Of a stretch of 64,000 nt of DNA, positions 348 through 55,007 are shown in pieces (within the stretch, counting starts at the first letter, position 1; the number at the start of each line of letters is the position of its first letter). The position numbers and the translations under genes were made by a program. Location of the stretch: contig DASTFB010000070.1 in NCBI GenBank assembly GCA_035709005.1, positions 5,223 through 69,222 on the forward strand, written 5' to 3'. The DNA is from Candidatus Methylomirabilota bacterium (GTDB lineage: Bacteria > Methylomirabilota > Methylomirabilia > Rokubacteriales > CSP1-6). The notes below the pieces were generated by a model. That model was given only the letters and a program-made list of their open reading frames with translations, had not been told where the DNA came from and made no database searches.

Positions 348-1375
348 CGCCAGTCGTCGAGCACCAGGTGTGTGGGGTCCTCGTAATCCTCCTGGCGGCC
401 CCGCTGCATGCGCACCATCGTGAAGTCGACCTGGTACCCCGCCCGGAGCAGCGCGCTGTACGCGGTGGTGTAGCGCGTGTAGACGGGCAGGATGACGCGC
501 TGGAGCCCCAGCTCGTGCCCCTGCTCCTCGAGGGCGGAGATGAACTGCTCGAGGAGCTCGACGCGCCTCTGCTGGGGATCGATGGCCAGATACTTGACGT
601 AGAGCGCGCCCATGGGGGCCTCGCTCACGCCCGGGGTGTGGTAGATCGCGAAGCCGAGCACATCCCGCCCGCGCTCGAGCAGCAGGGTGTCGCCCAGGGC
701 CAGGCCGTCGACGATCTCCACTTCCTTGGCCACGTCCAGACCCCGACAGATCGCGGTGGTGATACGGTGCAGCCGGGGCAGCACCGCCTTCTTCTTGGCC
801 TCCTCGAGCGTGGAGAAGCGCCGGACCGACAGCGGGAGCTTCACCGCCCGGAGCAACGGGGGCCGCCCGTTGTGCTGGTCGAGGGCCCGGCTGGTCACCG
901 CGGCCAGAGCCTTGGGCCGGAACCCCAGCTTGTGGTAGAGCGCGAGGTGCTTGGGGCTCGTGGGGTAGGTCACACAGCCCTGCAGCGCCGTCTTGTTCTC
1001 GTCGAAGAAGTCGAGCACCGCCTGGATGAGCTGCTGGCCGATCCTCTGGTTCTGGTAGTTGGTCAGGACGGCGACCGGCCCCAGGATCCCCACGCTGCCC
1101 CAGGTAACCCCGAGCGCGGCGCCGACGAGCTTGGTGCGGTCCTCCTCGGCCACGAAGCAGCCCCACGGCTCCATGAGCCAGCGGTGGTGCACGTACTGGG
1201 CGCCGCTGAAGGGTTGGCGCGGCCGCGTGCCGAGCTGCCGCTCCAGGAAGTCGCCGAACGTCTGGTCGATGACGTCGCGGACCCGGGAGAGATCCCCTTT
1301 GCGGACACGCCGGACGTGGACCTTGGTGAACCGCCCCTGAGAATCCGCGCCCAGCCGATCGACGGTGGCCCTCAC
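344..1375 (-). CDS. GNAT family N-acetyltransferase (two tandem acetyltransferase-like halves)
   Basis: 343-aa ORF with ...VLTNYQNQRIGQQLIQAV... and ...QGHELGLQRVILPV... segments typical of GNAT acetyl-CoA binding; start/stop overlap the neighbours. Confidence 0.65.
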   Translation of the reverse strand: MRATVDRLGADSQGRFTKVHVRRVRKGDLSRVRDVIDQTFGDFLERQLGTRPRQPFSGAQYVHHRWLMEPWGCFVAEEDRTKLVGAALGVTWGSVGILGPVAVLTNYQNQRIGQQLIQAVLDFFDENKTALQGCVTYPTSPKHLALYHKLGFRPKALAAVTSRALDQHNGRPPLLRAVKLPLSVRRFSTLEEAKKKAVLPRLHRITTAICRGLDVAKEVEIVDGLALGDTLLLERGRDVLGFAIYHTPGVSEAPMGALYVKYLAIDPQQRRVELLEQFISALEEQGHELGLQRVILPVYTRYTTAYSALLRAGYQVDFTMVRMQRGRQEDYEDPTHLVLDDWR

Positions 1376-2256
1376 GCGGAGACACCCGCGAGATCTTCGA
1401 GCAGGGTGATCACCGCGGAGTGGTCGAGCTGCCCCCGCCCCTTGACCCGGAGCGCGTTGAAAAGCTCCTGGACCACGGCGGTGGCGGGAAGCGGCACACC
1501 CAGCGCGCGCGCCGATTCCATGATGAGCCCGAGATCCTTGTAGTGCAGGTCCACCTTGAATCCCGGCCGGTAGCTGTTCTGGACGTAGTTCGGCGTCTTC
1601 TGGTCCAGGGCCCGCGAGCCCGCCAGACCACCGGCCAGCGCCTTGAGGGTCAGCTCGCGGTCCAGGCCGGCCTTCTTGGCGAGCGTCAGCGCCTCCCCCA
1701 GGGCCGTCAGGTTCATGGCCACGATGATCTGGTTGGCGAGCTTGGTGAAGCCGCCGAAGCCGAGCGGCCCCAGATACGTGATGGTCTTGCCCATCGTCGA
1801 CAAGACGGGCAGCACCTGGTCGAACACGGCCTTGTCGCCGCCCACCATGACGGACAGCACGCCGTCGATGGCGCCCTTCTCGCCCCCGGAGACCGGCGCA
1901 TCCAGCATGCGCACGCCCTTGCTCTCCAGCGTCTTGCCGACGTGCTGGGACACGATGGGCGAGATCGTCGACATGTCGATGAAGATCAGCCCCCGGCGCG
2001 CGCCCTCGGCGATCCCGTCCTTGCCCAGGGCGACCAGCTCCACGTCCGGCGAGTTCGGCAGCATCGTGATGAGCACGTCGACCTGCCCGGCCACTTCCCG
2101 CGGCGAGCCGGCAGCCTTGGCCCCGGCCTCCACCAGCTCATCCACCGGACCCCGGCTCCGGCTGTGGACAACCAGTGGGTAACCAGCTTTGAGAAGATTT
2201 CGGGCCATGGGGCGCCCCATGATACCGAGGCCAATAAATCCAATAACTTGCGGCAT
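1372..2256 (-). CDS. NAD(P)-dependent 3-hydroxyisobutyrate / 2-hydroxy-3-oxopropionate reductase family dehydrogenase
   Basis: Internal start MPQVIGFIGLGIMGRPMARNL has the Rossmann GxGxxG motif, plus HIBADH-family conserved blocks (DAPVSGG, KLANQ); the ORF-track start at 2301 is probably too long. Confidence 0.85.
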   Translation of the reverse strand: MPQVIGFIGLGIMGRPMARNLLKAGYPLVVHSRSRGPVDELVEAGAKAAGSPREVAGQVDVLITMLPNSPDVELVALGKDGIAEGARRGLIFIDMSTISPIVSQHVGKTLESKGVRMLDAPVSGGEKGAIDGVLSVMVGGDKAVFDQVLPVLSTMGKTITYLGPLGFGGFTKLANQIIVAMNLTALGEALTLAKKAGLDRELTLKALAGGLAGSRALDQKTPNYVQNSYRPGFKVDLHYKDLGLIMESARALGVPLPATAVVQELFNALRVKGRGQLDHSAVITLLEDLAGVSA

Positions 2257-2327
2257 GCGACTCCCCAGAGGCAAGGTGGTGGAACGCGCCGTTAGTACCA
2301 CATGGGGATACGGCGAATCAAGGCCTA

Positions 2328-2358
2328 ATCCGGCGCGTAGCGCCGGGGGGGCCCCCGC
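2328..2358 (-). terminator. putative rho-independent terminator after the AOR operon (GC hairpins ccggcgc-tac-gcgccgg and ggggggg/ccccc)
   Basis: Perfect 7-bp stem with 3-nt loop immediately 3' of the AOR stop at 2359, followed by a second G/C hairpin; no U-tract, as expected in a high-GC genome. Confidence 0.35.
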
Positions 2359-4299
2359 TTACCGGCCCTTCGTCCCCCACAGATCCCGGGCCAGCCAGTC
2401 CAGCCCGAGGTCCTTCAGAGTCTGGGGAAGCGGCCTCCCGGTCTTGCGGTCGTAGCCGACCTTGCCGTACCACGTCTCGAGCATCTTCTCCCACTGCTCC
2501 CCGATCGCCTGGCCCTTGGCCGGGCCGTCGTGGGGAGTGGAGCCGTAGCGCACGGACGGGCACTCCTTGTCGACGCCGATGCCGCAGCGCAGGCGGACCG
2601 CTCGGAAGATCGCGGCCGTGCGACGACCGAAGCGCATCGCCTCGTCGGGCGTGTACGGCCAGCCGGTCGCCGCGCTGAGCGCGCGGGCGAGGTTCTCCAG
2701 CCGCGTACGCCCGGTGAAGATACAGATGCCCAGAGAGTCCTCGAAGTGGCGGCGGCCCCGGATGCCGGCGACCTGGGTGGCCACCTCTTCGCCGTTGAAG
2801 GGATTGATGCGCGTAGGCAGGCCCAGCTCGGCCACGTGCACGGGCACGCCGGACTCCAGCGTGCCGGTGGAGCCCGTGCAGGTGTCGAGCATCTCGTCCC
2901 AGCGCCCACGGTGGTCGTGCCCGCGCGGGGAGGCGCCCTGCGCGGTATAGATGGCGGCGTCCCGGGCCGCGCCGCCCAACCGCTCGGACGCCACCTTCAC
3001 GCCCTCGGCCAGCACGTCGCCAAAGCCCTCACGCTTGACCAGCATTTGTAAGAGTTGGTTCGCCCCCTTGATATCGCCCCACTTCAGCTCGAAGCCCAGC
3101 TGATCCCTGGTGATGAGCCCGCGCTCCTGGCACTCCATCACCCAGCCGCACAGCCAGCCGAACTCGTTCACGTCGACGCAGGCCCGGTCGAGCTGGGTGT
3201 TGAGCCAGGAGATGCCCTGCTGATCGGTGGCCCCGATAGTCCAGCCCGCCCCCGACCAGCCCTCGTACTCCGGCTCGTCCACGATGGCGCCCTTGAAGTC
3301 GCCGCTGCGGATGACCTGCATGTGGCAGTGATGCATGCCGCAGGCGTTGCACTGGTGGCCGCGGTGATCGAAGCCCTCGCGCAGCTTGGGCGCCTCCCAC
3401 CGACTCAGGTCGTCATAGGGCACGTTGGTGGTGTAGTTCTTGATCGGCAGCACGCCGAGCTTCCCCAGGTTCACGACGCCGGGCAGCGTCCCGTACTCGT
3501 ACAGCGACTTGGCCGACGGGTCGGTCTTGAGGTCGTGGGCGATGTCGTCGGCGGCCTGCACCACGCCGCGATAGTCGGCGGCCCGCAGGGCCCGCGTGCC
3601 TTTCACGATGGCCACGGCCCGGAGGCGCTTGACGCCCATGACGGCGCCGCAGCCGTTCTTGGAGGCCACGTGGCCGTAGTCGCCGTGGATGGCGGCGAAG
3701 CGCACGAGTTTCTCGCCGGCCACGCCGGAGGTGTACACGGACAGCTGGTGGCCGGTGAGCCCCAGCATGCGGCCCAGCGCGTCCTGGGTCTCCCAGGTGT
3801 CCAGGCCCAGCAGCGGCTTGGCGTCCCGCAGCTCGATCACCTCGTCGTCGATGTAGAGGTAGACCCAGTCCTTGGACTGGCCCTGGATCACGATGGCGTC
3901 GTAACCGCAGTACTTGAGGTTGGTGCCGAAGAAGCCGTTGGCCTGAGTCGAGGTGGGCCCGTTCGTCATGGCTCCGATGGTCACGACGGTGAGGCCGCCC
4001 GTCCCCCACACCGGCAGCCCGGCCAGCGGGCCCGTGGCCAGGACGAGGCGATTGTCGGGATGGTCCCACGACACGTTGCCCTTGCCGCCTCTGGTGCCGG
4101 TTTCCCGGTAGAGGATCAGCGCGCCCAGGCCGGCGCCGCCCAGCCAGTCGCGCATCTCCTGAGGACTCCAGGGCTCGGCCCAGCACTTCTTCTTGGTCAG
4201 ATCGACCCGGAGGAGCTGGCCGGCGTAGGCGCCGGGCAGGCGGGTCGTGGATGCTGCCGTCTTGCTCCGTGGTGCCGCGCTCGTCGTCATCGGGGTCAC
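2359..4299 (-). CDS. aor: tungsten-containing aldehyde:ferredoxin oxidoreductase (AOR family)
   Basis: 646 aa. N-terminus ...AYAGQLLRVDLTKKK... matches the AOR N-terminal domain and the length fits full-length AOR; start overlaps the upstream FAD-oxidoreductase stop (ATGA). Confidence 0.9.
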   Translation of the reverse strand: MTPMTTSAAPRSKTAASTTRLPGAYAGQLLRVDLTKKKCWAEPWSPQEMRDWLGGAGLGALILYRETGTRGGKGNVSWDHPDNRLVLATGPLAGLPVWGTGGLTVVTIGAMTNGPTSTQANGFFGTNLKYCGYDAIVIQGQSKDWVYLYIDDEVIELRDAKPLLGLDTWETQDALGRMLGLTGHQLSVYTSGVAGEKLVRFAAIHGDYGHVASKNGCGAVMGVKRLRAVAIVKGTRALRAADYRGVVQAADDIAHDLKTDPSAKSLYEYGTLPGVVNLGKLGVLPIKNYTTNVPYDDLSRWEAPKLREGFDHRGHQCNACGMHHCHMQVIRSGDFKGAIVDEPEYEGWSGAGWTIGATDQQGISWLNTQLDRACVDVNEFGWLCGWVMECQERGLITRDQLGFELKWGDIKGANQLLQMLVKREGFGDVLAEGVKVASERLGGAARDAAIYTAQGASPRGHDHRGRWDEMLDTCTGSTGTLESGVPVHVAELGLPTRINPFNGEEVATQVAGIRGRRHFEDSLGICIFTGRTRLENLARALSAATGWPYTPDEAMRFGRRTAAIFRAVRLRCGIGVDKECPSVRYGSTPHDGPAKGQAIGEQWEKMLETWYGKVGYDRKTGRPLPQTLKDLGLDWLARDLWGTKGR

Positions 4300-5621
4300 A
4301 CCGCCACCGGGGTGGTGCCGGGCGCCCTGGACGGGCGTCCAAGCACGGTTTCGTCGAGCAGCCGTCGCGTCGTCCCGGACGCGATGTAGGCCGACTTGAT
4401 GTCGAAGGGGTTACGCCGGAGCGCGTCCTTGAAGTGGCCGAGCGCCGTCTGAGTCTGCACCAGGCCCTTGAGCATGCCCACGTCGTTCGTGGTCCAGATG
4501 TCGCGGGACGGCCCCAGGATGATGGCGCCCACGAGGTGATCGCCACGCCACAGCAGCTTGCGGTAGGCCGGCCGGTCCGGCCTGAGCCCGACCATCGCCT
4601 CGGCGCCCTCGTCGTCCCAGGCACCGAAGGACGCGATGTCGAGGTGGCAGACCTCGACGATGTTCATGAGCAGGCTGCCCGGGTAGCGGACGTCCTTGCC
4701 CGCCATGTTGGCGCCGGCCACGCGCCCGTGCTCCTGCGCCGTCGGCTCGATGGCGTGCAGCGCCGGCGCCCCGGACACGCGATCGGGTCCCTCGGCCACG
4801 TCGCCGGCGGCGTAGACATTGGGCACGCTGGCCCGGAGATGGTCATCGACCAGGATGCCCTGCTCGATCTTGATGCCGGAATCCTTGAGCCAGTCGAGGT
4901 TCGTCCGGATCCCCGTGGCCATGATCACGACGTCGGCCTGGATGTCGGGGCCCCTGGCGAAGCGCAGCCGCTTGCGGCCCTTCGCCTCCTCGATCCGCGT
5001 CAACGTGGCGCCGGCGCGGACGGTGACGCCGTGCCGGCGCAGCCAGCCCTCCACGAGCTCGGCGCCCTTGGCGTCGACCATGCGAGGCAGGATGCGCGGG
5101 GCGATCTCCACGATCGTCAGTGTGGCGCCCAGGGCCAGGATGGAGTTGAGGATGGTGAAGGCGATGAATCCGGCTCCCACCATGACCACGTGGCTGCCCG
5201 GCCGGATGTCGGCGATCAGGGCCCGGCACTGGTCCAGCGTCCAGAACGAGTGGACGCCGGGCAGGTCGGCGCCCGGCACCGGGGCCTTCACCGGCGACGA
5301 GCCCGTGGCGATCAGGCAGTCGTCATACTCCACGCTGGTGCCGTCGTCCAGGGTGCACGCGTTGGCCGCCGTGCCGAGCTTGACGGCGCGCCGGCCCAGG
5401 TGCGTCTTCACGCCCCACTGGGCCAGCACGGCCGCGGCCGCCGTGAAGACATGGGACTCGGCGATGGAGCGGTCCAGATAGTACGGGAGCACCATGCGGG
5501 AGTAGGGCTTCTCGACGCTGACCAGCGTGATCTCCGAGCGCTCGCGTTCTTCCTCGCGGATCGTTCGCATCGCGTTCATGCCGGCCGTGCCGCCGCCGAT
5601 GATCAGATGACGCGCCGGCAT
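4296..5621 (-). CDS. FAD-dependent pyridine nucleotide-disulfide oxidoreductase (AOR electron-transfer subunit, AorC-like)
   Basis: Start MPARHLIIGGGTAGMNA is a dinucleotide-binding motif; a second Rossmann block VVMVGAGFIAF follows and AAGDVAEG lies near the C-terminus. Its ATG overlaps the ferredoxin stop at 5621. Confidence 0.85.
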   Translation of the reverse strand: MPARHLIIGGGTAGMNAMRTIREEERERSEITLVSVEKPYSRMVLPYYLDRSIAESHVFTAAAAVLAQWGVKTHLGRRAVKLGTAANACTLDDGTSVEYDDCLIATGSSPVKAPVPGADLPGVHSFWTLDQCRALIADIRPGSHVVMVGAGFIAFTILNSILALGATLTIVEIAPRILPRMVDAKGAELVEGWLRRHGVTVRAGATLTRIEEAKGRKRLRFARGPDIQADVVIMATGIRTNLDWLKDSGIKIEQGILVDDHLRASVPNVYAAGDVAEGPDRVSGAPALHAIEPTAQEHGRVAGANMAGKDVRYPGSLLMNIVEVCHLDIASFGAWDDEGAEAMVGLRPDRPAYRKLLWRGDHLVGAIILGPSRDIWTTNDVGMLKGLVQTQTALGHFKDALRRNPFDIKSAYIASGTTRRLLDETVLGRPSRAPGTTPVAV

Positions 5622-6091
5622 CAGCGCGCCTCCGCCAGGACGCGGCCCATCCGCTCGGCGGCGAAGTCGCCGAGCCAGTCGGCCGTGGGCACGTCCTCGT
5701 AGAGGATGGCCGCGGTGGGGCAGGCGTGGACGCAGGCGGGGTCGCCGCCGCAGAGGTTGCACTTGAAGGCTTTCCGGGTGCCGGGGTCGTAGAACATGGT
5801 GCCGTAGGGGCAGGCGATCGTGCACAGCTTGCATCCAACGCAGAGGTCGTCCACGACGTCCTTCGCCCCGGCGGCGTTGATCGTGATGGCGCCGACCGGA
5901 CACGCCGTCATGCACCAGCCCTCGGCGCACTGCGTGCAAGTGTACGGCGCGTAGGAGGTGTGGCGTTCGAACGGGGACACGCGGATGACCGACTTGGCCG
6001 GCTGGTACGTCCCGGTTTGCATGTACGAGCACGCCAGTTCGCAGCGGAGGCAGCCGGTGCAGCGCTCCGGGATGATTCGAAGGACGCTCAT
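5621..6091 (-). CDS. polyferredoxin with four [4Fe-4S] cluster motifs (AorA-like)
   Basis: 156 aa with four CxxCxxC...CP cysteine blocks (CTGCLRCELAC, CTQCAEGWCMTACP, CVGCKLCTIACP, CNLCGGDPACVHACP). Confidence 0.85.
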   Translation of the reverse strand: MSVLRIIPERCTGCLRCELACSYMQTGTYQPAKSVIRVSPFERHTSYAPYTCTQCAEGWCMTACPVGAITINAAGAKDVVDDLCVGCKLCTIACPYGTMFYDPGTRKAFKCNLCGGDPACVHACPTAAILYEDVPTADWLGDFAAERMGRVLAEAR

Positions 6092-6405
6092 CGCTTCTTT
6101 CGGGCCTTCCCCTTGCCGCCGCCCTCCAGCCGCTCGATGAACTCGTCGAGGGGGATGGCGGCCATCGTCATGCCGGCGGCCCCGCCCCGCGCGCCCACTT
6201 CGACGGACACACGCGAGATGGTGGCGTTGTCCGCCGCCTCGATGACGGTGACGAAATCGTAGGGGCCGAGGACGGCGTACTGGGCCAGCACCCGCGCGCC
6301 CATACGCTCGACGTCGGCGTTGACCTTGCGAATCCAGCCGGGACGCTCCCGCACGACCTTGCGGCCCGACTCCGAGAGCGTGCTCAGCATGATGTAGAGG
6401 CTCAC
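6088..6405 (-). CDS. GYD domain protein
   Basis: VSLYIMLSTLSESGRKVV... is the GYD-family N-terminus; GTG start at 6405 with AAGGAG 7 nt upstream; stop overlaps the ferredoxin start. Confidence 0.65.
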   Translation of the reverse strand: MSLYIMLSTLSESGRKVVRERPGWIRKVNADVERMGARVLAQYAVLGPYDFVTVIEAADNATISRVSVEVGARGGAAGMTMAAIPLDEFIERLEGGGKGKARKKR

Positions 6406-6455
6406 GGCTGGATCTCCTTTCGCAGCGGCCGGTAGTATAACACCGTCCCCTCCGA

Positions 6456-7358
6456 TCACACGGGCGCGTCTTGGCTCGAGGCGCGCAGGAAGTCGTAGAC
6501 CGACGAAAAGTCCTTGCGCCCGTAGCCGTGGGAGGAGGCCAGCCGCAGCAGCAGCTGGGCGGCCGGCGCCACGGCCACCGGCACCCGCAGCTCGCGGGCG
6601 GCGTTGACGGCCAGGCCCAGGTCCTTGGCCATGAGATCCGTCATGAATCCCGGAGCGTAATCGCGGTTGGCCGCCGCCTGCTCCACCATGCCTGGCACGG
6701 GATGGCCGTGCTCCATCACCCAGGTGTTCCCCGACGACCTGGCGATGACCTGGGTCAGGATGCGCGGATCGACGCCGAACCCTTCCGCGATGCGGAACGC
6801 CTCGCTCACCGCCACCATGGCCACGCCGGCGATGAGATTGTTGCAGAGCTTGGCCACCTCGCCGGAGCCCACCGCGCCGACGTGGATGATCGTGCTGCCC
6901 ATGGCGGCCAGGGCCGGGCGGGCCTCCTCGAGATCCATGGGATCGCCACCGACCATGATGGTCAGCGTGCCGGCCACCGCCCGCGGGACCGCGCCCGAGA
7001 CCGGCGCATCGAGGAACCGCACGCCGGCCGAGCGCAGCCGGACGGCCACCCGGCGGGACACCGCGGGATCGATCGTCGACATGTCCACGCAGAGCCGGCC
7101 GCGCGCCACGCCCTCGAGCACGCCGGCGGGACCCAGGTAGGCCGCCTCCACGTGCGAGGACGACGGCAGCATCGTCACGACGAGCTGTCCCTGCTTGGCC
7201 GCTTCGGCCGCCGAGCCCGCCGCGGTGGCGCCCAGCGCGACGGCGGCTTGCAGCGCCGCGGGCGCCACGTCGTAGGCGGTGACCGAGAAGCCGCGGGCCA
7301 GCAGGTTCTTGACCATCGGCTGCCCCATGGTGCCGGTCCCGATGAAGCCGATCTTCAT
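6456..7358 (-). CDS. NAD(P)-dependent oxidoreductase, HIBADH family (second paralogue)
   Basis: MKIGFIGTGTMGQPMVKNL, DAPVSGAVP, GSGEVAKLCNN; AGGAGG Shine-Dalgarno (SD) site upstream of the ATG. Confidence 0.85.
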   Translation of the reverse strand: MKIGFIGTGTMGQPMVKNLLARGFSVTAYDVAPAALQAAVALGATAAGSAAEAAKQGQLVVTMLPSSSHVEAAYLGPAGVLEGVARGRLCVDMSTIDPAVSRRVAVRLRSAGVRFLDAPVSGAVPRAVAGTLTIMVGGDPMDLEEARPALAAMGSTIIHVGAVGSGEVAKLCNNLIAGVAMVAVSEAFRIAEGFGVDPRILTQVIARSSGNTWVMEHGHPVPGMVEQAAANRDYAPGFMTDLMAKDLGLAVNAARELRVPVAVAPAAQLLLRLASSHGYGRKDFSSVYDFLRASSQDAPV

Positions 7359-7474
7359 GACGGCCTCCTTTTGTAGCGGGGTCCGCGAGCCCGGTTCGAC
7401 GCGTGGGTGGCCTGCCCGAGGTGCGTGTGGCTCCGTCTCGTCGTGTCAGCCGTTCGCGTCACTCTGCCCCCCTG

Positions 7475-8037: not shown

Positions 8038-8140
8038 CACACCTCGCGCGAAATGGGGGGGTCTGGAGGGGGCGCGTCTCGTGCCTCCTCCAGGCTAAGA
8101 ATCAGGTCTGAAGGGGGCCTCTGCCCCCTCTGGCTCGATC
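8038..8140. repeat. family-A GC-rich palindromic repeat element (two GGAGGGGGC-N-GCCCCCTCC-like hairpins plus cacctcgcgcgaaatgg arm)
   Basis: Near-identical element recurs at 17553-17660 and, inverted, at 33650-33720. Here it overlaps and supplies the last ~15 codons and stop of the 8095-9153 gene. Confidence 0.8.
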
Positions 8141-9153
8141 GGTCGCGAGACGGCCCGGCTGAAGCAGCAGTTGGGGACCACGCTGGAGTGCTTGCCCGGC
8201 CCGCCGGCGACCACCACCAGCACGTCCTCCGGCCCGGGGACACGCGGCGGCCGGACATCGTCGTCGCGGAGAGCCATCATCCACGGGGGCCAGTCCTGGG
8301 CCCCCCACATGCCCCCGAGCTTCAGCGTCTTGAGTGGCAGCCGCGCGTGCTCGTACACGAAACGCTGGACGTCGGCTCGTCCCAGGCCCTCGGCGGCGAT
8401 GGTCTGCGCGTGCTCGGGACCCAGGACGACGAGCAGCTGGCTCTGGGCCAGGTACCAGCCCACGTTGGAACCCAGCGTGACGGCGGTGTGGGCGACGGTG
8501 GCCAGGATGCCCGCCGCCGTCGTCGACACGTGGTCGTTGATGTTGTGGGGAGCCTCACCACCATACACCGTGACGACGTCGCCGGCGGCCAACGGTTCCC
8601 ACGGCGAGGCAGCCTCGTTCTCGGCGATGCAGTAACTGAACTTGGCGGGACTGCCCTGGGTCGCCATGTCGTGACGACCCGGCCAGGCGCCACCGACGTT
8701 CATGAGGATCAGGCGGATGGCCCGTCCGATCGTCGCGTTGGCCCGAAAGCCCGGCCCGAAGCAACCGCTGCCGGCGTGCAGGCCGATCTCGCGCGCGTAG
8801 GGTCCGTTGACCACGAGCAGGGGCGCCACCGGATGCGTGGTGGCCTGCACGCCGTAGAGATTGAAGGCCGGATCCAGCATGGCCTCCACGGCGGCCACGA
8901 TGACGGGCAGGTGCTCGGGCCGGCACCCGGCCATCACCGCGTTGACGGCGAGCGCCTGCAGGGTGGCTTCATGCCAGAGCGGCGGCATGGGACCCAATGA
9001 GCGGTCGGCGGGAGCGCCGCCCAGCATGGCCCGCACGCGGTCCTCGGTGGGAGGCACGATAGGCAGCCCATCGCACCAGCCCCGCTCGACGAACGCCTCC
9101 AGCAGCGCCTCGGGCGTGTCGTCGACGTCGAGCGTGGCCGCCGACGGCGCCAT
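8095..9153 (-). CDS. conserved partner protein of the UGSC selenoprotein (uncharacterised; homologous to the C-terminal 450 aa of the fused gene at 53337-55007)
   Basis: 352 aa. Blocks ERGWCDGLPIVPPTEDRVRAMLGG / VNAVMAGCRPEHLPVIVAAV / GSPAKFSYCIAENEAASPWEP align with SRGWSDGFPLVAPTERAVAAMLGG / VNSVMAGCAPEHLPLLIAAV / GSPLKYSLCCAENERESPWEP in the second locus; its ATG overlaps the selenoprotein stop. Confidence 0.7.
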   Translation of the reverse strand: MAPSAATLDVDDTPEALLEAFVERGWCDGLPIVPPTEDRVRAMLGGAPADRSLGPMPPLWHEATLQALAVNAVMAGCRPEHLPVIVAAVEAMLDPAFNLYGVQATTHPVAPLLVVNGPYAREIGLHAGSGCFGPGFRANATIGRAIRLILMNVGGAWPGRHDMATQGSPAKFSYCIAENEAASPWEPLAAGDVVTVYGGEAPHNINDHVSTTAAGILATVAHTAVTLGSNVGWYLAQSQLLVVLGPEHAQTIAAEGLGRADVQRFVYEHARLPLKTLKLGGMWGAQDWPPWMMALRDDDVRPPRVPGPEDVLVVVAGGPGKHSSVVPNCCFSRAVSRPIEPEGAEAPFRPDS

Positions 9154-9683
9154 CAGCGCTCACCGAGCAGGCTGAGCAGCTGCTCCACGGCCTGCTGAGC
9201 GCGGCGGACGATGGCCTCGGGCCGTTCGCCGCCCAGCGGGTGCTCCACGACCAGCAGGGGCAGGCCGGCCACGCCCCGGGCGGCGAGCTGGCGGACGGCG
9301 ACCTCCTGAAACGCGGTGGTGGCGATCAGCGCGGACGCGGTTCCGGCCCTGGCCAGCTCGAGGGCGTCGTGGAGACTCCACGACGTGCAGGACCCTCAGT
9401 CCGCGGAGCCGGCGAAGACGACATCGCAGGCTTTGGCCAGCTCGACCACCAGCTCCGCGGGCGCCGGCGACGAGCAGTTCGCCTTGCGCCGGTGGACGAC
9501 GGCCTTGACGCCGTGCCGCTCGCGCAGGAGGCGACCGAGCTCCGTGACCAGGCGGTCGAAGTTCGGCTTGGTGTTGTCGAGAAAGCCCACGGTGAGGTTG
9601 CCGAAGTCGCCGGGCAGCGGAGGCACGCTCACCCGTTCGCTCGCTTCGACCCCCACTGGACTCAACACCCGGATGCGTGGCAT
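9153..9683 (-). CDS. UGSC-motif selenoprotein (in-frame UGA at 9396-9398 read as selenocysteine; ~176 aa)
   Basis: The ORF-track ORF 9396-9713 stops at a UGA. Reading through gives ...VVFAGSAD-U-GSCTSWSLHDALELARAG...LLGER*, with no further stop for 80 codons until a TGA at 9153-9155 that overlaps the next ATG. AGGAGG SD before the ATG at 9683. Same architecture as the fused paralogue. Confidence 0.7.
9365..9385 (-). promoter_or_regulatory. SECIS-like stem-loop ~10 nt 3' of the UGA (RNA CGUCGUGG-AGUCU-CCACGACG)
   Basis: Perfect 8-bp stem (extendable to 10). Position and size match bacterial SECIS elements; the stem is identical at the second locus while the loop differs. Confidence 0.55.
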
Positions 9684-9717
9684 GGGCACCTCCTGGCGTC
9701 CTGATGAGCGCAACGCG

Positions 9718-9939
9718 TCATTGTACTCCGCGGCGAGGCAGCCCGGTGGAGCGCGCCAGCAGCCGTCCCAGCGTGACGTGCAGCTCCGTGAGGATGGAGC
9801 GCTTGACCCGGACAGTGACGGCTTCCACCGGCTCGGCGCTGCCCACGCGATGGATCACCAGGGTCCCCGTGAACTCGTCGGCCCGCTCGTCCACCGCGGC
9901 CAGGCCCCGCAGCGTGAGGACTTCCCACGTCTCGCTCAT
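9718..9939 (-). CDS. hypothetical small protein (73 aa) immediately upstream of the selenoprotein gene
   Basis: ORF MSETWEVLTLRGLAAVDERADEFTGTLVIHRV... ends 35 nt before the selenoprotein start. Weak SD and no recognisable family; may be non-coding. Confidence 0.2.
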   Translation of the reverse strand: MSETWEVLTLRGLAAVDERADEFTGTLVIHRVGSAEPVEAVTVRVKRSILTELHVTLGRLLARSTGLPRRGVQ

Positions 9940-43280: not shown

Positions 43281-44189
43281 ATGGCCGTCCTGGGCTTCGT
43301 CGGGCTGGGCGCGATGGGCAGCCGCATGGCCCAGCGCCTGCTGGCCGCCAAGCACGAGGTGGTGGGCTACAACCGCACCCCGGACAAGGCCCGCAGCCTC
43401 GTCGCGGCGGGGCTCCAGCTCGTGCCCACCCCGCGTGCCGCCGCCGAGGCGGCCGAGGTCGTGTTCAGCATGGTCACCGACAACACCGCCCTGCGGGCCG
43501 TGGCGCTGGGCGAGCGCGGCATCGTGGCCGGGCTCAAGCCCGATGCCGTGTACGTCGAGATGAGCACGGTGAGTCCGGCCGTCACCCGCGAGATCGGGGA
43601 GGCGGTCGCCGCCCGCGGCGCGGTGATGCTGGACGCCCCGGTCTCCGGCAGCACCATCACGCTGGAACGGGGCCAGGCCTCGTTCATGGTCGGCGGCGAC
43701 CCCAAGGCGCTGGACCGCGTGCGGCCGTACCTGCTCGACATCGGTACCGCTGTCACCCACGTCGGCCCCCTCGGGCTGGCCAAGACCATGAAGGTGGCGA
43801 CCAATCTCGGGCTCGCCGTCCAGATGCTGGCCTTCAGCGAGGCGGTGTTGCTGGCCGAGAAGTCGGGAATCCCTCGGGACGTCGCGGTGGAGGTGCTGTT
43901 CAAGTCGGTGGTCGCCTCGCCGATGGTGAAGTACCGGGGCCCGTTCGTGGTGGGTCAGATGCCGCGGGAGGCGTGGTTTCCTGTCCCCATGATCCAGAAG
44001 GACGTGCAACTGGCGCTCGATCAGGGCCGCGCCGTCGGCGTGCCCCTGCCCACGACGGCCCTGACCCAGGAATGGCTCACCATGGCGCGTGGCCTGGGGC
44101 TCGGCGACTACGACTTCGGCGTCCTGTTCGACGTGCTGGCCGACCTCAGCGGCCTTCCCCGCAGCGCCAAGCCCTCCGAGCTACCCTAG
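43281..44189 (+). CDS. NAD(P)-dependent oxidoreductase, HIBADH family (third paralogue)
   Basis: MAVLGFVGLGAMGSRMAQRLL, DAPVSGS, GLAKTMKVATN. Confidence 0.85.
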   Translation: MAVLGFVGLGAMGSRMAQRLLAAKHEVVGYNRTPDKARSLVAAGLQLVPTPRAAAEAAEVVFSMVTDNTALRAVALGERGIVAGLKPDAVYVEMSTVSPAVTREIGEAVAARGAVMLDAPVSGSTITLERGQASFMVGGDPKALDRVRPYLLDIGTAVTHVGPLGLAKTMKVATNLGLAVQMLAFSEAVLLAEKSGIPRDVAVEVLFKSVVASPMVKYRGPFVVGQMPREAWFPVPMIQKDVQLALDQGRAVGVPLPTTALTQEWLTMARGLGLGDYDFGVLFDVLADLSGLPRSAKPSELP

Positions 44190-45236
44190 CTTCTCCCGCA
44201 GCCAGTCCGCCACGAGCGGACGGTACTTGTACGGGATGTTGTTGCAGACGTGGTTGCCGTCCGGGTACATGACGAGCTCCGCCTTCGGGGCCTCGGCGGC
44301 CAGGCGCTCGGCGTGCTGATAGGGAATCAGCCGGTCCAGCTTGCCGAAGACCACCAGCAGGGGCTGCCTCACCCGGCCGGCGACACCCTCGAGATCCAGG
44401 CGCGCGGCCCGGGCCCGCGCGTCGGTCTGGTCGCGGGCGCCCGAGTGATAGGTGAAGGTCTCCCGCGTGATGGGCGGCAGATCGTCCCACAGCGGCGCGA
44501 AGCCGTACGGGCCGCCCAGGGCGGCGACCGCCCGCAAGCGGTCCTCGAACGCCGCTGCCCGCGGGGCATAGTACCCGCCCAGGCTCACGCCGGCGGCGCC
44601 GATACGCTCGAGGTCCAGGTCGCGACGGCCCTTGACCGCGTCCAGCATGGCGCTGACCGCGACCTCGTAGTCGTGACGGATGTGCGTGCGGTAGCCCGTC
44701 TCACCCTGGCCCGGGCCCTCCATCGTGAGCGTGGCCATGCCGCGGGCGAGGAACACGTTCTCCCAGTTGAAGAACTCCTCCTTGGCCGAGTCCAGCCCGG
44801 GGATCAGCAGCACGAGAGGGGGCCGCGCGGCAGCGGGCGGGCGGCGAAGGTTGCCGACCATGACGGCGCCGTCGAAGCCGACCTCCAGGCGCTCGGCGCC
44901 GGGGTCCAGGTGGCGGTGGGCCGCGTAGAGGCTCGAGACGGCGCGGTCGGCAGCCGCGCGGTGTCGCGCAGGATCGACCATCCACACGAACTTGGCGAAG
45001 TGATAGCAGAGCGCAGCCCGGACCCAGGCCTCGCCGGCCGTCCGCGTCCGCCCTCTGACCTCGGCCTCCCGCGCCAGGCCGGCGTGCATGTCCCCGATCT
45101 GGCACCACGCCGGCAGCCACTGGTCCCAGCGCTCGAGCCCGGCGGTCGTCGCGACGAAGTCGTTGTAGTCGACGCCCTGGGTGACGAAGCGCGGGGCCCA
45201 GTGCTGCAGCGCCGCCTGGATGCGCGCGTCAGGCAT
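44181..45236 (-). CDS. alpha/beta-hydrolase (FrsA-like esterase family)
   Basis: GVSLGGY nucleophile elbow, GNHVCNN near the C-terminus; 60-70% identical by eye to 46526-47581. Confidence 0.75.
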   Translation of the reverse strand: MPDARIQAALQHWAPRFVTQGVDYNDFVATTAGLERWDQWLPAWCQIGDMHAGLAREAEVRGRTRTAGEAWVRAALCYHFAKFVWMVDPARHRAAADRAVSSLYAAHRHLDPGAERLEVGFDGAVMVGNLRRPPAAARPPLVLLIPGLDSAKEEFFNWENVFLARGMATLTMEGPGQGETGYRTHIRHDYEVAVSAMLDAVKGRRDLDLERIGAAGVSLGGYYAPRAAAFEDRLRAVAALGGPYGFAPLWDDLPPITRETFTYHSGARDQTDARARAARLDLEGVAGRVRQPLLVVFGKLDRLIPYQHAERLAAEAPKAELVMYPDGNHVCNNIPYKYRPLVADWLREKLG

Positions 45237-46533
45237 CGGCCTCTCCCTGGGCCGCCCGCCAGGGACGGCCGAAGCGGTCTTGATAGACGAAGTCGTCCAG
45301 CGGCCGGGGATTCCGGGGCGGGCGTTCCGCGGGCACGCCGAAGGGCATGACGCCGATCAGATCCCACGCTCGGGGACAATCGATGAGCGTCTTCACCTGT
45401 TCCTCGACCCAGTGTGTGACCAGAGTCGTCCCCAGGCCCAGTCCGTGGGCCATCACCGCCATGTTCTGAGCGGCCAGGCCGCCGGCGTGCATGTGAGTGG
45501 CCTCGCCGTGGATGTGGGGTCCGCCTCTGGTAGGGTCGCTGATGAGCGCGATCGCCAGCGGGACTGCTCGCCAGTCGGGATGCTCGCCGGCGCTGCCGCG
45601 GTAGGCCGGCACCCAGTGCGCCGAGATCTCCACGGACTCGCGGGCCAGGTCGCCCAGGCGGGCCAGCCGGGCGCGGTCGCGCAGCAGGACGTAGCGCACC
45701 GGCTGGAAGTTGCCCGCCGAGGGCGCCCACTGGCCCGCCCGCAAGATCTCGACGACGCTGGACATCGGCACCGGCTCGTCGCGGAACCGGGTGACCCACC
45801 GAACGCCGGTGACCGTCTCCAGCAACTCGGGCACCCGGCCGTCGCTCCCACCGTCGGCGGCCAGCGCGGCCGGGGCGGGGGCGCGGTACCGCTCCTCGGC
45901 CACGAGCTCGGCGAGCGGCAGCCGCGTGAGCGAGGCGGCCAGCACTTTGGGGTTGGTGCGGCGCAGATCGGGCCAGCCCACGCCCATCACGCCGATGGTG
46001 TCCCAGGAAAAGGGCACGTCGAGCAGCCGCTTGAGCTTCTCCTGAGAGAAGTGGCTGTACATCACCAGCGCCATTCCGTAGGCGCGGGCGGCCAGCGCCA
46101 GGTTCTCCGCCGCCGCCGCGGCGGCGAGATGATGATTCCAGTTGTTGTGGATGTGGGTGGGCCCCGCGCCAGGATCCGCGCAGACGGCGATGCAGAAGGG
46201 CGTCGCCGTCCAGTGCTGAACGTAGCCGCGCAGACCGGCCGGGCGGAAGAGACCTTCCCAGTGATTGGAGATGGCCTTCGACTCCCGGGTGAGGGCGAAC
46301 AGCCGGCGCTTGAGGTCGGGATCGTCCAGGACGATGAGGCGCACCGGATCGCTGTCCGCGGCCGTCCAGCCCCAGCGGGCGGCGTCCAGCACGCCGGCCC
46401 GCGTGGGGCCGGCGACGGGGCGCCGCAGGAACGTCCGGAAGGTGCGCCGGGTGAGCAGCCCGGCCCGCACGTCGGGCCGGGGGTCCAGCCCGACGTGGGG
46501 CGAGGCCAGCAGGAGCGAGGGATCCTCAGGCAA
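45229..46533 (-). CDS. tandem-nitroreductase-domain protein
   Basis: Two nitroreductase-like halves (...LLASPHVGL... / ...SAGNFQPVRYVLL...), 434 aa. Confidence 0.7.
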   Translation of the reverse strand: MPEDPSLLLASPHVGLDPRPDVRAGLLTRRTFRTFLRRPVAGPTRAGVLDAARWGWTAADSDPVRLIVLDDPDLKRRLFALTRESKAISNHWEGLFRPAGLRGYVQHWTATPFCIAVCADPGAGPTHIHNNWNHHLAAAAAAENLALAARAYGMALVMYSHFSQEKLKRLLDVPFSWDTIGVMGVGWPDLRRTNPKVLAASLTRLPLAELVAEERYRAPAPAALAADGGSDGRVPELLETVTGVRWVTRFRDEPVPMSSVVEILRAGQWAPSAGNFQPVRYVLLRDRARLARLGDLARESVEISAHWVPAYRGSAGEHPDWRAVPLAIALISDPTRGGPHIHGEATHMHAGGLAAQNMAVMAHGLGLGTTLVTHWVEEQVKTLIDCPRAWDLIGVMPFGVPAERPPRNPRPLDDFVYQDRFGRPWRAAQGEADA

Positions 46534-47581: not shown

Positions 47582-47620
47582 CGCTAGGCTCCTTCGGTCA
47601 GAAGTTCGGGACGTCCTGCG

Positions 47621-53336: not shown

Positions 53337-55007
53337 TTACTCGTCCACGGACATCGTCACCGGCTCGCCGCCGCCGTAGAAATACGCGCCGCGTCCAGCG
53401 GCGCCGCCGACCACGGCGATGTCGTAACAGGCCGGATCCTCCACGACCGGCAGCGGCAGGGCCGGATGCTCGCGCAGCCAGCCGAGCTCGGGATGGGACA
53501 CCGCCATCGCCTTGGGCTCCTTGGTGAGCATCAGCGTCCGGAACGGCAGCCGCGCCGCCCGGTAGAGGGCCTCCTGGATCTGGCGACGGCCCCAGCCGGC
53601 TTTGGCGAAGACGTGGGCGTGCTCGGGACAGATGAAGAGCGTGTTGTGCTCTTTCTCCTCGGTCTTGTAGCGCGGATCGGCGCGCCGGCCGATGAGCCAG
53701 AGGCCGGTGCCGACCTGAGCCACGTTCGCGGCGGCGGTGGCGAAGACCTCGATGAGGGCCTCGGGCGTCGTGGATTGAAAGTCGTGGAGCTCGCACATCC
53801 CGTAGACGAAATGCACCGTCACCGTGCTCGCCTCGGTCGGGAAGCCGCGCGCCACGTGGTACGGCTCCCACGGGCTCTCACGCTCGTTCTCGGCGCAGCA
53901 GAGGCTGTACTTGAGGGGTGAGCCGATGGTGTCCATGTCGCTCACGCCGACATAGGTGTGGCCCACGTTCATCATGACGAGCCGCACGGCGCGGCCCAGC
54001 ACGGTGTTGGCGGCCGAGGGCGCGCCGGGGCCCAGGGCGCACATGCCCGCGTTGAGGCCGGCCCGCCGCCCCTGGGGACCGTTGACGAGCACGAGCGGGG
54101 CGTGGGGCCCCGTCGACATCGCCTTGTTGCGGATGTACATCTTCGGCTCGGCCAGGCACCGCACGGCCGCGATCAACAACGGCAGGTGCTCGGGCGCGCA
54201 GCCGGCCATGACTGAATTGACGGCCAGCTTCTCGACGGTGGCGATCCCGAACCCCGGCTCGAGGACGGCGACCTGGTCGCCGGGGGCGCGCCGGGTGCCC
54301 CCGAGCATGGCCGCCACCGCGCGCTCGGTGGGAGCGACCAGCGGGAACCCGTCGGACCAGCCTCGGGACAAGAAATCCCGGTTCATGGCCTCCCACGCGG
54401 CCAGGGCGTCCTCGCCTTCGTAGGCTAACCGGGTTTCGGCGGGCTTCCGCTCGACCGCGGCGGGCTCGGCGACGGGCGTGGTGAGGCCGCGCAGCACCTG
54501 CTCGAAGGCCGCGTCCACCATCCGGTGGACGGCTTCAGGCGTCTGGTTGGTGAAGGGCAGCGGCACCACGGCCAGCGGCAGCCCGGGCAGCCCCAGCGTC
54601 GCCGCCGTGCCGTGGGCGTCGTGGACGAAGTGCTGGGCCGTGAAGATGACGGTCGGGATCCCCCGCCGCTCCAGCTCGATCATGTCGTGGACACCCCACG
54701 ACGTGCAGGACCCTCAGTCGTTGGTGGTGCCCACCACGGCGTTGACCTCGGCGGCGATGCGGTCGGCGTCCTCGGCGGTGCAGTGGCGCATGAGCCAGCC
54801 CACCGAGCCCGTGTAGCGCTTGAACTTCACCCCGGGGAACTTCTCGCCCAGCAGCTGCTCGGTCCGGTCCAGGGCGAAGTCGCCGCCGGCCTTCATGTTC
54901 CAGTAGAGCCCGACGGTCACCCCCGTGAAGTCGCGCAACCGCGGCGCCGGCTTCACGGAGAACTCCACCGCCTTCGCCAGGGGACTGAGTATTTCGAGTC
55001 GTGCCAT
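53337..55007 (-). CDS. fused UGSC-motif selenoprotein (N-terminal ~97-aa domain + Sec + ~458-aa partner domain; UGA at 54714-54716 read as Sec; 556 aa)
   Basis: ORF 54714-55007 ends ...AVVGTTND at a UGA. The next codons GSCTSWGVHD run in-frame into the M of ORF 53337-54683 (MIELERRGIPTV...). Co-linear with the two separate genes at 8095-9713. AAGGAGGG SD before the ATG at 55007. Confidence 0.75.
54683..54703 (-). promoter_or_regulatory. SECIS-like stem-loop 3' of the UGA (RNA CGUCGUGG-GGUGU-CCACGACG)
   Basis: Same 8-bp stem as at 9365-9385, different loop, same spacing from the UGA. Confidence 0.55.

Follow-up and report, generated by a model that had tools for sequence, protein, structure and literature searches.

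Two UGSC-family genes with in-frame UGA codons, very probably read as selenocysteine, in a Methylomirabilota (Rokubacteria) genome

The window analyzed here, that is, the entire 64,000-nucleotide stretch of DNA from a Candidatus Methylomirabilota bacterium, contains two minus-strand loci in which a reading frame runs through an in-frame TGA that is closely followed by a hairpin (Table 1). At the first locus (copy 1), the open reading frame upstream of the TGA ends ...KACDVVFAGSAD, and past the TGA, translation in that frame can continue for 80 codons (GSCTSWSLHDALELARAG...EQLLSLLGER) up to TGA 9153-9155, which shares its A with the ATG of the next gene. All these features had been pointed out in a sequence-only reading of the window and are present in the sequence. 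The same reading delimited the upstream open reading frame as 9396-9713; its end at the TGA stands, but the gene starts not at TTG 9713 but at ATG 9683, which is preceded by AGGAGG 6 nt upstream and gives an N-terminus, MPRIRVLSP, that is matched by the homologs. With this start, the read-through product has the 176 aa originally quoted, and the TGA at 9396-9398 is the only one in frame before the terminal stop. The GC content by codon position after the UGA of copy 1 (0.81/0.53/0.93) follows the coding pattern of this genome, and the pattern is wrong in the other two frames.

At the second locus (copy 2), reading through the UGA adds 458 codons and yields a fusion of a UGSC domain with a homolog of the 352-aa protein encoded immediately downstream of copy 1 (hereinafter, the partner); the C-terminal domain of copy 2 is 37-39% identical to the partner at locus 1. 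Thus, the UGA and the hairpin recur at 54714 as originally noticed, but the arrangement is not the identical one it was taken for. Three other in-frame TGA candidates in the window (23426, 41696, and 47621) were rejected as ordinary gene ends, with the next gene following.

Table 1. Coordinates of the genes, in-frame UGA codons, and candidate SECIS hairpins in the window
Feature	Position	Strand	Details
Copy 1, UGSC-family gene, very probably encoding a selenoprotein	9153..9683	-	176 codons + stop; Sec = codon 96
In-frame UGA of copy 1, almost certainly read as Sec	9396..9398	-	U of U-G-S-C; TGA in 85/85 copies
Candidate SECIS hairpin, copy 1	9365..9385	-	8-bp stem CGUCGUGG/CCACGACG, loop AGUCU
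Partner gene	8095..9153	-	352 aa; ATG overlaps UGSC stop (TGATG)
Copy 2, UGSC domain fused to partner-family domain	53337..55007	-	556 aa; Sec = codon 98
In-frame UGA of copy 2, very probably read as Sec	54714..54716	-	TGA at motif column
Candidate SECIS hairpin, copy 2	54684..54702	-	7-bp stem GUCGUGG/CCACGAC, loop GGUGU

The UGSC family is among the most abundant environmental selenoprotein families, and we know of no function on record for it. When the read-through products were scored against profile HMMs, with Cys placed at the Sec position, copy 1 matched Pfam PF24696 ("UGSC family") over its full length with 158.6 bits (cut-off 25) and NCBIfam NF041046 ("UGSC family (seleno)protein") with 125.7 bits (cut-off 125). 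Copy 2, with 122-126 bits, lies far over the Pfam cut-off of 25 and, with 107.6 bits, under the NF041046 equivalog cut-off of 125. The label "UGSC family (seleno)protein", which the sequence-only reading had suggested, is a real one, and both window copies match the corresponding families. A family of UGSC-containing selenoproteins, found mostly in environmental, non-marine settings, was described in 2008 by Zhang and Gladyshev in PLoS Genet (PMC2398784), and the window copies share with it the HMM families, the U-G-S-C column, and the alternation of Sec and Cys, with nothing essential different. The finding is a re-identification of this already described family, not a new kind of protein.

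The alignment used to scan genomes for relatives had X in place of Sec, which allowed both TGA and TGY forms to be picked up. At least 595 relatives were confirmed, and the best 80 loci were analyzed; these contain 83 copies, and two more come from short contigs that match the window exactly, for a set of 85 in which the window copies are counted. TGA occupies the U-G-S-C column in every one of these copies, including those of all the best 80 loci out of the at least 595. Cys, encoded by TGC or TGT, is found at the same column in three homologs (L084-L086), and a further Cys form is part of a fusion protein (P0364). Several Cys homologs (P0020, P0035, P0051, P0059, and P0105) are continuous across the UGA site as D-C-G-S-C-T-S-W, so that the motif aligns as D-[U/C]-G-S-C-T-S-W with both Sec and Cys forms among the homologs. 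Orthologs that all stopped at this position, with unconserved sequence behind it, would have spoken against recoding; instead, the Cys homologs align through the UGA column. One homolog with Gly at this column (P0001), considered as the product of a code-25 gene call, was rejected as such, its codon being GGA.

Selection on the frame past the UGA was assessed by per-codon entropy, which was used in place of compensatory covariation because the stem of the hairpin is invariant. Across 83 sequences, the amino acids encoded by the post-UGA codons are kept while the third positions drift (for instance, G at +18 has H(aa) of 0.09 and H(pos3) of 1.51), except at codons +3 to +10. Protein-level conservation and coding codon bias, the two properties that the sequence-only reading expected of a translated frame, are thus both present. 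At codons +3 to +10, the third-position entropy is ~0 (n=83), whereas conserved residues on either side have ~1-1.5 bits. Within the hairpin, the rare codon AGT is retained in 82 of the 83 Sec genes, with AGC CTG found in a Cys form (L084), and the 21 nt from the UGA on are the same in copies 1 and 2, the proteins of which are just 33% identical.

The hairpin of copy 1, CGUCGUGG-AGUCU-CCACGACG (9385-9378 / 9377-9373 / 9372-9365), begins 10 nt past the UGA and is a perfect 8-bp stem-loop, the one that the sequence-only reading had noticed; RNAfold adds an A-U pair, for 9 bp, a GUC loop, and -13.5 to -14 kcal/mol. The copy 2 hairpin, GUCGUGG-GGUGU-CCACGAC, folds with -11.9 kcal/mol. In both copies, the distance from the UGA to the loop is 18 nt, and the loop follows the pattern N1-G-U-N-N2, with N1 and N2 pairable. 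The position and size initially judged typical of a bacterial SECIS agree with the published bSECIS constraints (PMC13188914), and both hairpins lie within every one of these limits: a loop of 3-9 nt, an upper stem of 4-16 bp, a G within the first two loop positions, a UGA-to-loop distance of 16-37 nt, and a minimum free energy of -7.5 kcal/mol or lower. Similar to the SECIS of the Escherichia coli fdhF type, the window hairpins are located inside the reading frame, directly 3' of the UGA; their apical loop is short, with G-U as its second and third nucleotides, and the spacing falls within 16-37 nt. They differ in sequence, however, and no bulged U is seen. The Rfam scan at the gathering score, the curated covariance-model threshold, returned no SECIS match for the window, and a permissive scan gave only chance matches (E ~3) to unrelated families; this is weak counter-evidence because no model in the library fits the hairpin and the published bSECIS elements are very diverse. 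On its own, the hairpin is only moderately unusual: among the 1364 TGA triplets of the window, a perfect SECIS-like stem follows 1.2% when 7 bp or more are required and 0.37% when the minimum is 8 bp, and the z-scores against shuffled sequences are weak (-1.95 and -0.16). Furthermore, the stem is partly dictated by conserved residues (T-S-W ... H-D), and of the three Cys forms examined, L084 and L086 can still form a similar stem, but L085 cannot. The significance of the hairpin derives from its co-occurrence with TGA in 85/85 copies and from the freezing of synonymous sites exactly over it.

These observations have to be weighed against two other readings of the UGA. If it were a true stop, copy 1 would encode a 95-aa protein, and the 80 codons downstream would form a gene of their own, be left over from a decayed one, or not be translated, in line with the output of gene callers (many ~97-aa fragments, as well as the database record for copy 2, P0241). 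TGA is also the commonest stop codon in the window, ending 22 of the 38 other genes, so that any recoding would be local, with the code itself not changed; and neither selA, selB, and selD nor tRNA-Sec was found within the 64-kb window by a tRNA scan and Pfam scans of the 20 largest ORFs. Nevertheless, termination at this site is extremely improbable, given the protein-level purifying selection on the post-UGA frame in 83 sequences, the continuity of the Cys homologs, a predicted domain that requires both halves of the product, and the retention of TGA in all 85 copies, followed by a hairpin that is frozen at the nucleotide level. Nor does the distal part resemble a separate gene: the 80 post-UGA codons of copy 1 include no ATG, the only alternative starts are three GTG codons (42, 50, and 70), and there is no room for a ribosome-binding site. 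Recoding of the UGA, wholly or partly, to Cys by a SelC*-type tRNA (tRNA-ReC), delivered by SelB to the same SECIS, is very unlikely as well. Vargas-Rodriguez et al. (2018; cited in PMC13582414) described such tRNAs, which insert Cys at a UGA accompanied by a SECIS, and the window gives no sign of which tRNA serves; yet tRNA-ReC is tied mainly to UXXU-type genes and was detected in ~2% of other Sec-type genomes (PMC13582414). Methylomirabilota, for their part, are reported to be rich in selenoproteins, with very large selenoproteomes (PMC13188914), and Sec variants have been reported in their genomes (PMC13582414). Moreover, Cys could be encoded by a plain TGC, sparing the cost of recoding, yet all 85 copies have TGA.

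Taken together, the UGA at 9396-9398 almost certainly encodes Sec in a member of the UGSC family, and we are highly confident that both loci are Sec-containing members of this known family in a Methylomirabilota (Rokubacteria) genome. We know of no experiment that demonstrates selenium in a UGSC-family protein. Under the proposed mechanism, the UGA codons at both loci would be locally recoded to Sec, with the hairpin 10-11 nt downstream functioning as a bacterial SECIS that, by extension of the established bacterial mechanism, would bring SelB, loaded with Sec-tRNA-Sec, to a ribosome that has paused at this codon.

In the AF2 model (pLDDT 89.8), the halves before and after the UGA jointly build one five-stranded domain; the UGSC product is predicted to be a single α/β domain of ~175 aa. 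The model places Sec where strand 3 ends and the resolving Cys of U-G-S-C in the first turn of helix 3, the predicted layout of a redox-active selenol/thiol pair. A thioredoxin-like fold with a general redox role was suggested in 2008 (PMC2398784), a guess at the fold that the predicted model does not bear out: a new detail is that the modeled fold is flavodoxin/Rossmann-like rather than thioredoxin-like. The likeness to thioredoxin proposed from the sequence accordingly applies to the U-x-x-C, located where a strand passes into a helix, but does not extend to the fold. Thioredoxin and the Rdx/SelW-like oxidoreductases likewise carry a redox pair spaced x-x at a strand-to-helix N-cap. The Cys-type UGSC gene of one locus (L085) directly adjoins an Rdx-family gene.

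A search of PDB sequences with the UGSC and partner profiles found nothing significant. Among the 12 UGSC-domain proteins scanned, 9 weakly matched a GrdB, GrdF, or PrdB model (TIGR01917 in 7, TIGR04483 in 2, and NF040794 in 1), all in one register, with UGSC residues ~80-160 aligned to the Sec region of GrdB (331-408) at E of 5e-4 to 0.09; the scores of 12-19 bits are far under the curated cut-offs of 300-800 and do not place UGSC in these families, and Pfam GRDB (PF07355) was absent from the UGSC scan even at E <=10. Similar to UGSC, GrdB (glycine reductase selenoprotein B) and PrdB (D-proline reductase subunit B) carry a U-x-x-C motif in a Sec-bearing subunit, which cooperates with a separate substrate-binding subunit encoded alongside it. 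In contrast to these systems, the 352-aa partner has no similarity to the pyruvoyl proproteins PrdA/GrdE, and the window scans detected no grdA or prdC-like genes and no pyruvoyl-proenzyme subunit. With such low scores and no PrdA/GrdE-like partner, the homology is a lead rather than a result.

The partner matched no Pfam or NCBIfam family, has conserved residues D28, C77, R144, and E178, and belongs to a family of 6374 clusters at 50% identity. A partner homolog lies immediately 3' of UGSC in 79 of the best 80 loci (of at least 595 relatives), and one is also found downstream in Cys-form loci; a contig from Binatia (L082) stops short of the downstream gene. Clustering of gene neighborhoods is a noisy procedure in high-GC DNA, where antisense ORFs cluster together; in it, the partner alone was broadly conserved, a HIBDH-like dehydrogenase occurred at 50 loci, and at 10 loci a CoA-transferase lay upstream. 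The CoA-transferase, thioesterase, and dehydrogenase genes nearby may point to an organic acid or acyl-CoA as the substrate. A Pyr_redox_2 protein is also encoded in the neighborhood, at 4296-6167. UGSC is fused to the partner in either order (P0364; P0367 and P0372), and elsewhere the partner is fused, instead of UGSC, to a TrxR-like flavoprotein (P0402) or an AhpC/TSA domain (P0496). A fusion of UGSC with an uncharacterized domain is described in the 2008 paper ("UGSC/Unknown_1", its Fig. S1A; PMC2398784), and the partner family probably corresponds to the "Unknown_1" domain.

Judging from the gene order, the fusions, and the predicted structure, the UGSC domain probably does not act alone but supplies the redox function in a two-part system, the other part being the protein encoded downstream. 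It would either pass reducing equivalents to the partner or use its selenol to attack a partner-bound substrate; oxidation would form a Se-S bond inside U-x-x-C, to be re-reduced by a thioredoxin-reductase-type flavoprotein. Alternatively, UGSC could be a free-standing general thiol-disulfide oxidoreductase of the thioredoxin/SelW type, as the 2008 suggestion would have it (PMC2398784), with the adjacent gene representing synteny without shared function; indeed, because most of the 80 loci belong to one phylum, some of the gene-order conservation is inherited. We consider this improbable, in that the adjacency is also seen, at 38-43% identity, in loci from Burkholderiales and deltaproteobacteria (L077, L079-L081, and L083) and, furthermore, in the Cys forms, the fusions are independent and in both orders, the partner is also joined to TrxR-like and peroxiredoxin-like domains, and the UGSC stop overlaps the partner start. 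A more specific version of the two-part reading, which we put forward tentatively and regard as possible rather than probable, is that UGSC and the 352-aa partner form a widespread two-component Se-dependent reductase, in which UGSC would be a remote flavodoxin-like relative of the GrdB/PrdB Sec domain, the partner, with its D28, C77, R144, and E178, the substrate-binding catalytic subunit, and a TrxR-like flavoprotein the electron source.

In public records, both window genes are split or truncated. As the sequence-only reading anticipated, gene callers cut UGSC proteins short, and most of the database homologs are ~97-aa fragments ending ...GSAD; GenBank annotates copy 2 only as a 448-aa post-UGA "hypothetical protein" (P0241, 100% identical). 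Owing to such split and stub records, both selenoproteome counts and the statistics of protein families are biased in Methylomirabilota and in comparable bacteria of soil and groundwater. Beyond annotation, the predicted flavodoxin-like fold and the weak but recurrent matches to the GrdB/PrdB Sec region add new details to the description of the family, and the near-obligate pairing of UGSC with its partner, reinforced by the fusions, offers a concrete two-protein system to test.

The two UGSC genes of the window, referred to here as copies 1 and 2, very probably encode selenocysteine (Sec) at an in-frame UGA codon. Inspection of the minus strand and its translation bore out what the sequence-only reading had described for copy 1, namely, the UGA, the 80-codon extension, the TGATG overlap with the next gene, and the stem-loop ten nt past the UGA, which is the dominant local structure predicted by RNAfold (~-14 kcal/mol when folded in isolation). 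The ORF of that reading extends to 9713, but ATG 9683 rather than TTG 9713 is the likelier start, judging from the AGGAGG motif 6 nt 5' of it and an N-terminus that agrees with those of the homologs; the read-through product then measures 176 aa. The arrangement was also held to recur identically at position 54714. The UGA-GGG-UCC-UGC-ACG-UCG-UGG string of copy 1 is indeed found there (UGA at 54714-54716), followed by a hairpin, but the read-through spans 458 codons, to position 53337, and yields a 556-aa protein (53337-55007, minus strand), the C-terminal two-thirds of which are homologous to the separate gene downstream of copy 1 (hereafter, the partner).

Features of the two UGSC loci and their surroundings
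Feature	Position	Strand	Remarks
Copy 1, first ORF, ending ...KACDVVFAGSAD	TGA 9396-9398	-	translation of 9050-9850
Copy 1, same frame past the UGA, GSCTSWSLHDALELARAG...EQLLSLLGER	to TGA 9153-9155	-	80 codons; translation
Copy 1 hairpin, CGUCGUGG-AGUCU-CCACGACG	9365-9385	-	starts ten nt past UGA; loop A-G-U-C-U; N1:N2 A:U; stem 8-9 bp; UGA to loop 18 nt; -13.5 to -14 kcal/mol
Partner gene	8095-9153	-	ATG overlaps UGSC stop (TGATG)
HIBDH-like NAD-binding dehydrogenase	6456-7358	-	similarity by eye and tblastn
Pyr_redox_2 flavoprotein, long N-terminal extension	4296-6167	-	downstream of copy 1
Aldehyde:ferredoxin oxidoreductase	2359-4410	-	downstream of copy 1
HIBDH-like NAD-binding dehydrogenase	1372-2358	-	downstream of copy 1
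Copy 2 hairpin, GUCGUGG-GGUGU-CCACGAC	54684-54702	-	sequence, folding; loop G-G-U-G-U; N1:N2 G:U; stem 7 bp; UGA to loop 18 nt; -11.9 kcal/mol
Family III CoA-transferase	55044-56240	-	ends 36 nt upstream of copy 2

In the consensus published for SECIS elements of bacteria (PMC13188914), the apical loop has 3-9 nt and the upper stem 4-16 bp; the first two loop positions include a G, most often within the pattern N1-G-[G/U]-N-N2, where N1 and N2 can pair; 16-37 nt separate the UGA from the loop, and the minimum free energy is -7.5 kcal/mol or lower. Both hairpins fall within all these limits; no Rfam model matches the hairpin. By analogy with the established bacterial mechanism, SelB with Sec-tRNA-Sec would bind this structure. 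Because 22 of the other 38 genes predicted in the window end ordinarily in TGA, the recoding is local and the genetic code is unchanged. The same combination of UGA and SECIS could be decoded as Cys via tRNA-ReC, a minor alternative to which we assign only a slight probability. No gene for tRNA-Sec, selA, selB, or selD was found in the 64-kb window by a tRNA scan and Pfam scans of its 20 largest ORFs; as indirect support for Sec insertion in the lineage, a Methylomirabilota MAG with 63 predicted selenoprotein genes has been described (PMC13188914), and Methylomirabilota genomes are among the carriers of Sec-type hydrogenases (PMC13582414).

A fortuitous stem-loop behind a genuine stop codon also has to be considered. 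The window has a GC content of 70.5% and contains 1364 TGA triplets, 1.2% of which are followed by a perfect SECIS-like stem of at least 7 bp and 0.37% by one of at least 8 bp; z-scores of the hairpins against shuffled sequences are weak. By itself, the hairpin is not decisive; the comparative evidence, drawn from aligned relatives, is. A scan of the genome collection with a pattern that left out the Sec column (the alignment position of U in U-G-S-C) yielded at least 595 confirmed relatives; the best 80 loci were compared. TGA occupies the Sec column in 85 of 85 copies, 83 from these best 80 loci and two from short contigs identical to the window, and likewise in copies 1 and 2. Per-codon entropy over 83 distinct sequences points to purifying selection on the protein level past the UGA, with third positions free at invariant or nearly invariant residues (1.19 bits at G+1, 1.51 at G+18, and 1.22 at A+33). 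In codons +3 to +10 (TGC ACG TCG TGG AGT CTC CAC GAC), third-position entropy is only 0-0.16 bits, and this stretch coincides exactly with the hairpin. Of the 83 sequences, 82 retain AGT as the loop codon, although it is rare at the genome GC3 of ~0.9; a Cys-type homolog (locus L084) has AGC CTG at this position. Codon-position GC past the UGA (0.81/0.53/0.93) carries the coding signature of the genome, the other two frames being wrong. Thus, the post-UGA frame, for which conservation and coding bias had been set as a test, displays both.

In family searches with Cys as a placeholder for Sec, copy 1 matched Pfam PF24696 'UGSC family' at 158.6 bits and, at 125.7 bits (cut-off 125), NCBIfam NF041046 'UGSC family (seleno)protein', so that the label named in the sequence-only reading is real; copy 2 scored 122-126 bits and 107.6 bits (cut-off 125), respectively. 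Both TGA and Cys forms of this column occur among the homologs: the full-length Cys homologs P0020, P0035, P0051, P0059, and P0105 align across the UGA (D-C-G-S-C-T-S-W), and Cys-containing homologs have TGC or TGT in the DNA. Most of the homologs in databases are ~97-aa fragments from Rokubacteria/Methylomirabilota MAGs that end in GSAD and are therefore cut at the UGA, and of copy 2 the 448-aa post-UGA ORF is deposited in GenBank as a 'hypothetical protein' of a Methylomirabilota MAG (P0241, 100% identity). Annotation pipelines thus truncate such genes, as had been anticipated.

Several relatives stand out. In the metagenomic P0001 gene (L087, 3262-3345), GGA (Gly) replaces TGA at the Sec column with the hairpin fully intact, including the rare AGT; either Sec was lost very recently, or the GGA is a sequencing variant. 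In a deltaproteobacterial MAG (L081, 6277 and 8169), 1.9 kb separates two UGSC genes of the Sec type; TGA and the hairpin are present in both, and a partner gene lies between them. Loci in MAGs labeled Nitrosocosmicus and Nitrosotalea (both archaea), Limnocylindria, and Dormiibacterota (L048, L053, L063, and L076) are Rokubacteria-like, with 61-64% identity and an identical SECIS, and probably represent binning contamination rather than the true distribution.

The AlphaFold2 model of P0001, a full-length relative with 68% identity, is confident (pLDDT 89.8, pTM 0.84) and arranges five beta-alpha units in one domain, in which the Sec column falls between strand 3 (88-94) and helix 3 (97-112), with a Cys three residues further on, in the first helical turn. 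In the model, U-x-x-C is thus placed as is usual for redox-active pairs. The earlier comparison to a thioredoxin-like CxxC motif accordingly holds for the pair but not for the fold, which is predicted to be flavodoxin-like. The sheet requires both halves of the gene, which argues against two separate products. Like UGSC, the selenoproteins GrdB and PrdB carry U-x-x-C, and 9 of the 12 UGSC-domain proteins scanned had at least one sub-threshold match, in the same register, to an NCBIfam selenoprotein-B-type model (TIGR01917 [GrdB] in 7 proteins, TIGR04483 [PrdB] in 2, and NF040794 [GrdF] in 1), with UGSC residues ~80-160 aligning, sub-threshold, with GrdB 331-408. We take this putative remote homology as a lead rather than a demonstration. 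The UGSC domain of P0373, a UGSC-partner fusion, lacks the U/C-x-x-C motif (IAEIGGSLFG), and so the domain may have a structural role too.

The 352-aa partner matched no Pfam or NCBIfam family, and belongs to a very large group of proteins (6374 clusters at 50% identity, E 1e-3 or better). A partner homolog lies immediately 3' of UGSC in 79 of the best 80 loci, among them loci from Burkholderiales and deltaproteobacteria with ~40% identity, and likewise in Cys-form loci. The two are fused in copy 2, P0364 (Cys), L077, and L079 (both Sec), and in the reverse order in P0367 and P0372, both of which end exactly at the Sec codon. In other proteins, the partner is fused to a thioredoxin-reductase-like flavoprotein with a CAVC motif (P0402) or to AhpC/TSA (P0496), and ~715-aa proteins contain two stretches matching the partner profile, which suggests tandem duplication; P0368, P0391, P0405, and P0497 were also among the partner-family representatives examined. 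Across diverse members, D28, G76, G117, G143, R144, E178, and G317 are invariant and C77 (MAGC) nearly so. From the adjacency, the fusion architectures, and these conserved residues, we infer, with less confidence than the Sec assignment, that UGSC and the partner are the two components of a redox system, in which UGSC would provide the partner, or a substrate bound to it, with a selenol/thiol pair. Recycling of this pair would fall to a flavoprotein of the TrxR type.

The four tabulated genes within 1372-7445 (minus strand) lie downstream of copy 1 and the partner on the same strand and may constitute a redox operon. Among related loci, HIBDH-like homologs occur in 50 and Pyr_redox_2 homologs in 16, and a homolog of the CoA-transferase gene next to copy 2 directly precedes UGSC in 10. 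A probable thioesterase gene, assigned by eye from sequence, is also nearby; together with the CoA-transferase and HIBDH-like neighbors, it hints at organic-acid or acyl-CoA chemistry. Most of this context may reflect lineage synteny. At L085 (1652-1915), an Rdx/SelW-family gene (PF10262) and an aldo-keto reductase gene directly precede a Cys-type pair of UGSC and partner. Unrelated to UGSC, a nitroreductase-family gene lies between two paralogous FrsA-like alpha/beta-hydrolase genes (44181-47620, minus strand).

Surveys of selenoproteomes have included the 'UGSC-containing protein' from 2007 or earlier, and current reviews list the family under the model NF041046. In the Global Ocean Sampling study, UGSC is among the most abundant families (255 Sec versus 21 Cys forms, UxxC motif), and a 'UGSC/Unknown_1' fusion is already noted (PMC2398784). 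Because both the family and the selenoprotein richness of the lineage have been described, the finding correctly re-identifies a selenoprotein family that was already known and introduces no new type of element. It adds modestly to this picture, with SECIS evidence at the nucleotide level, the near-obligate association with one partner family and the range of fusions, a predicted flavodoxin-like rather than thioredoxin-like fold, and a possible link to GrdB/PrdB.
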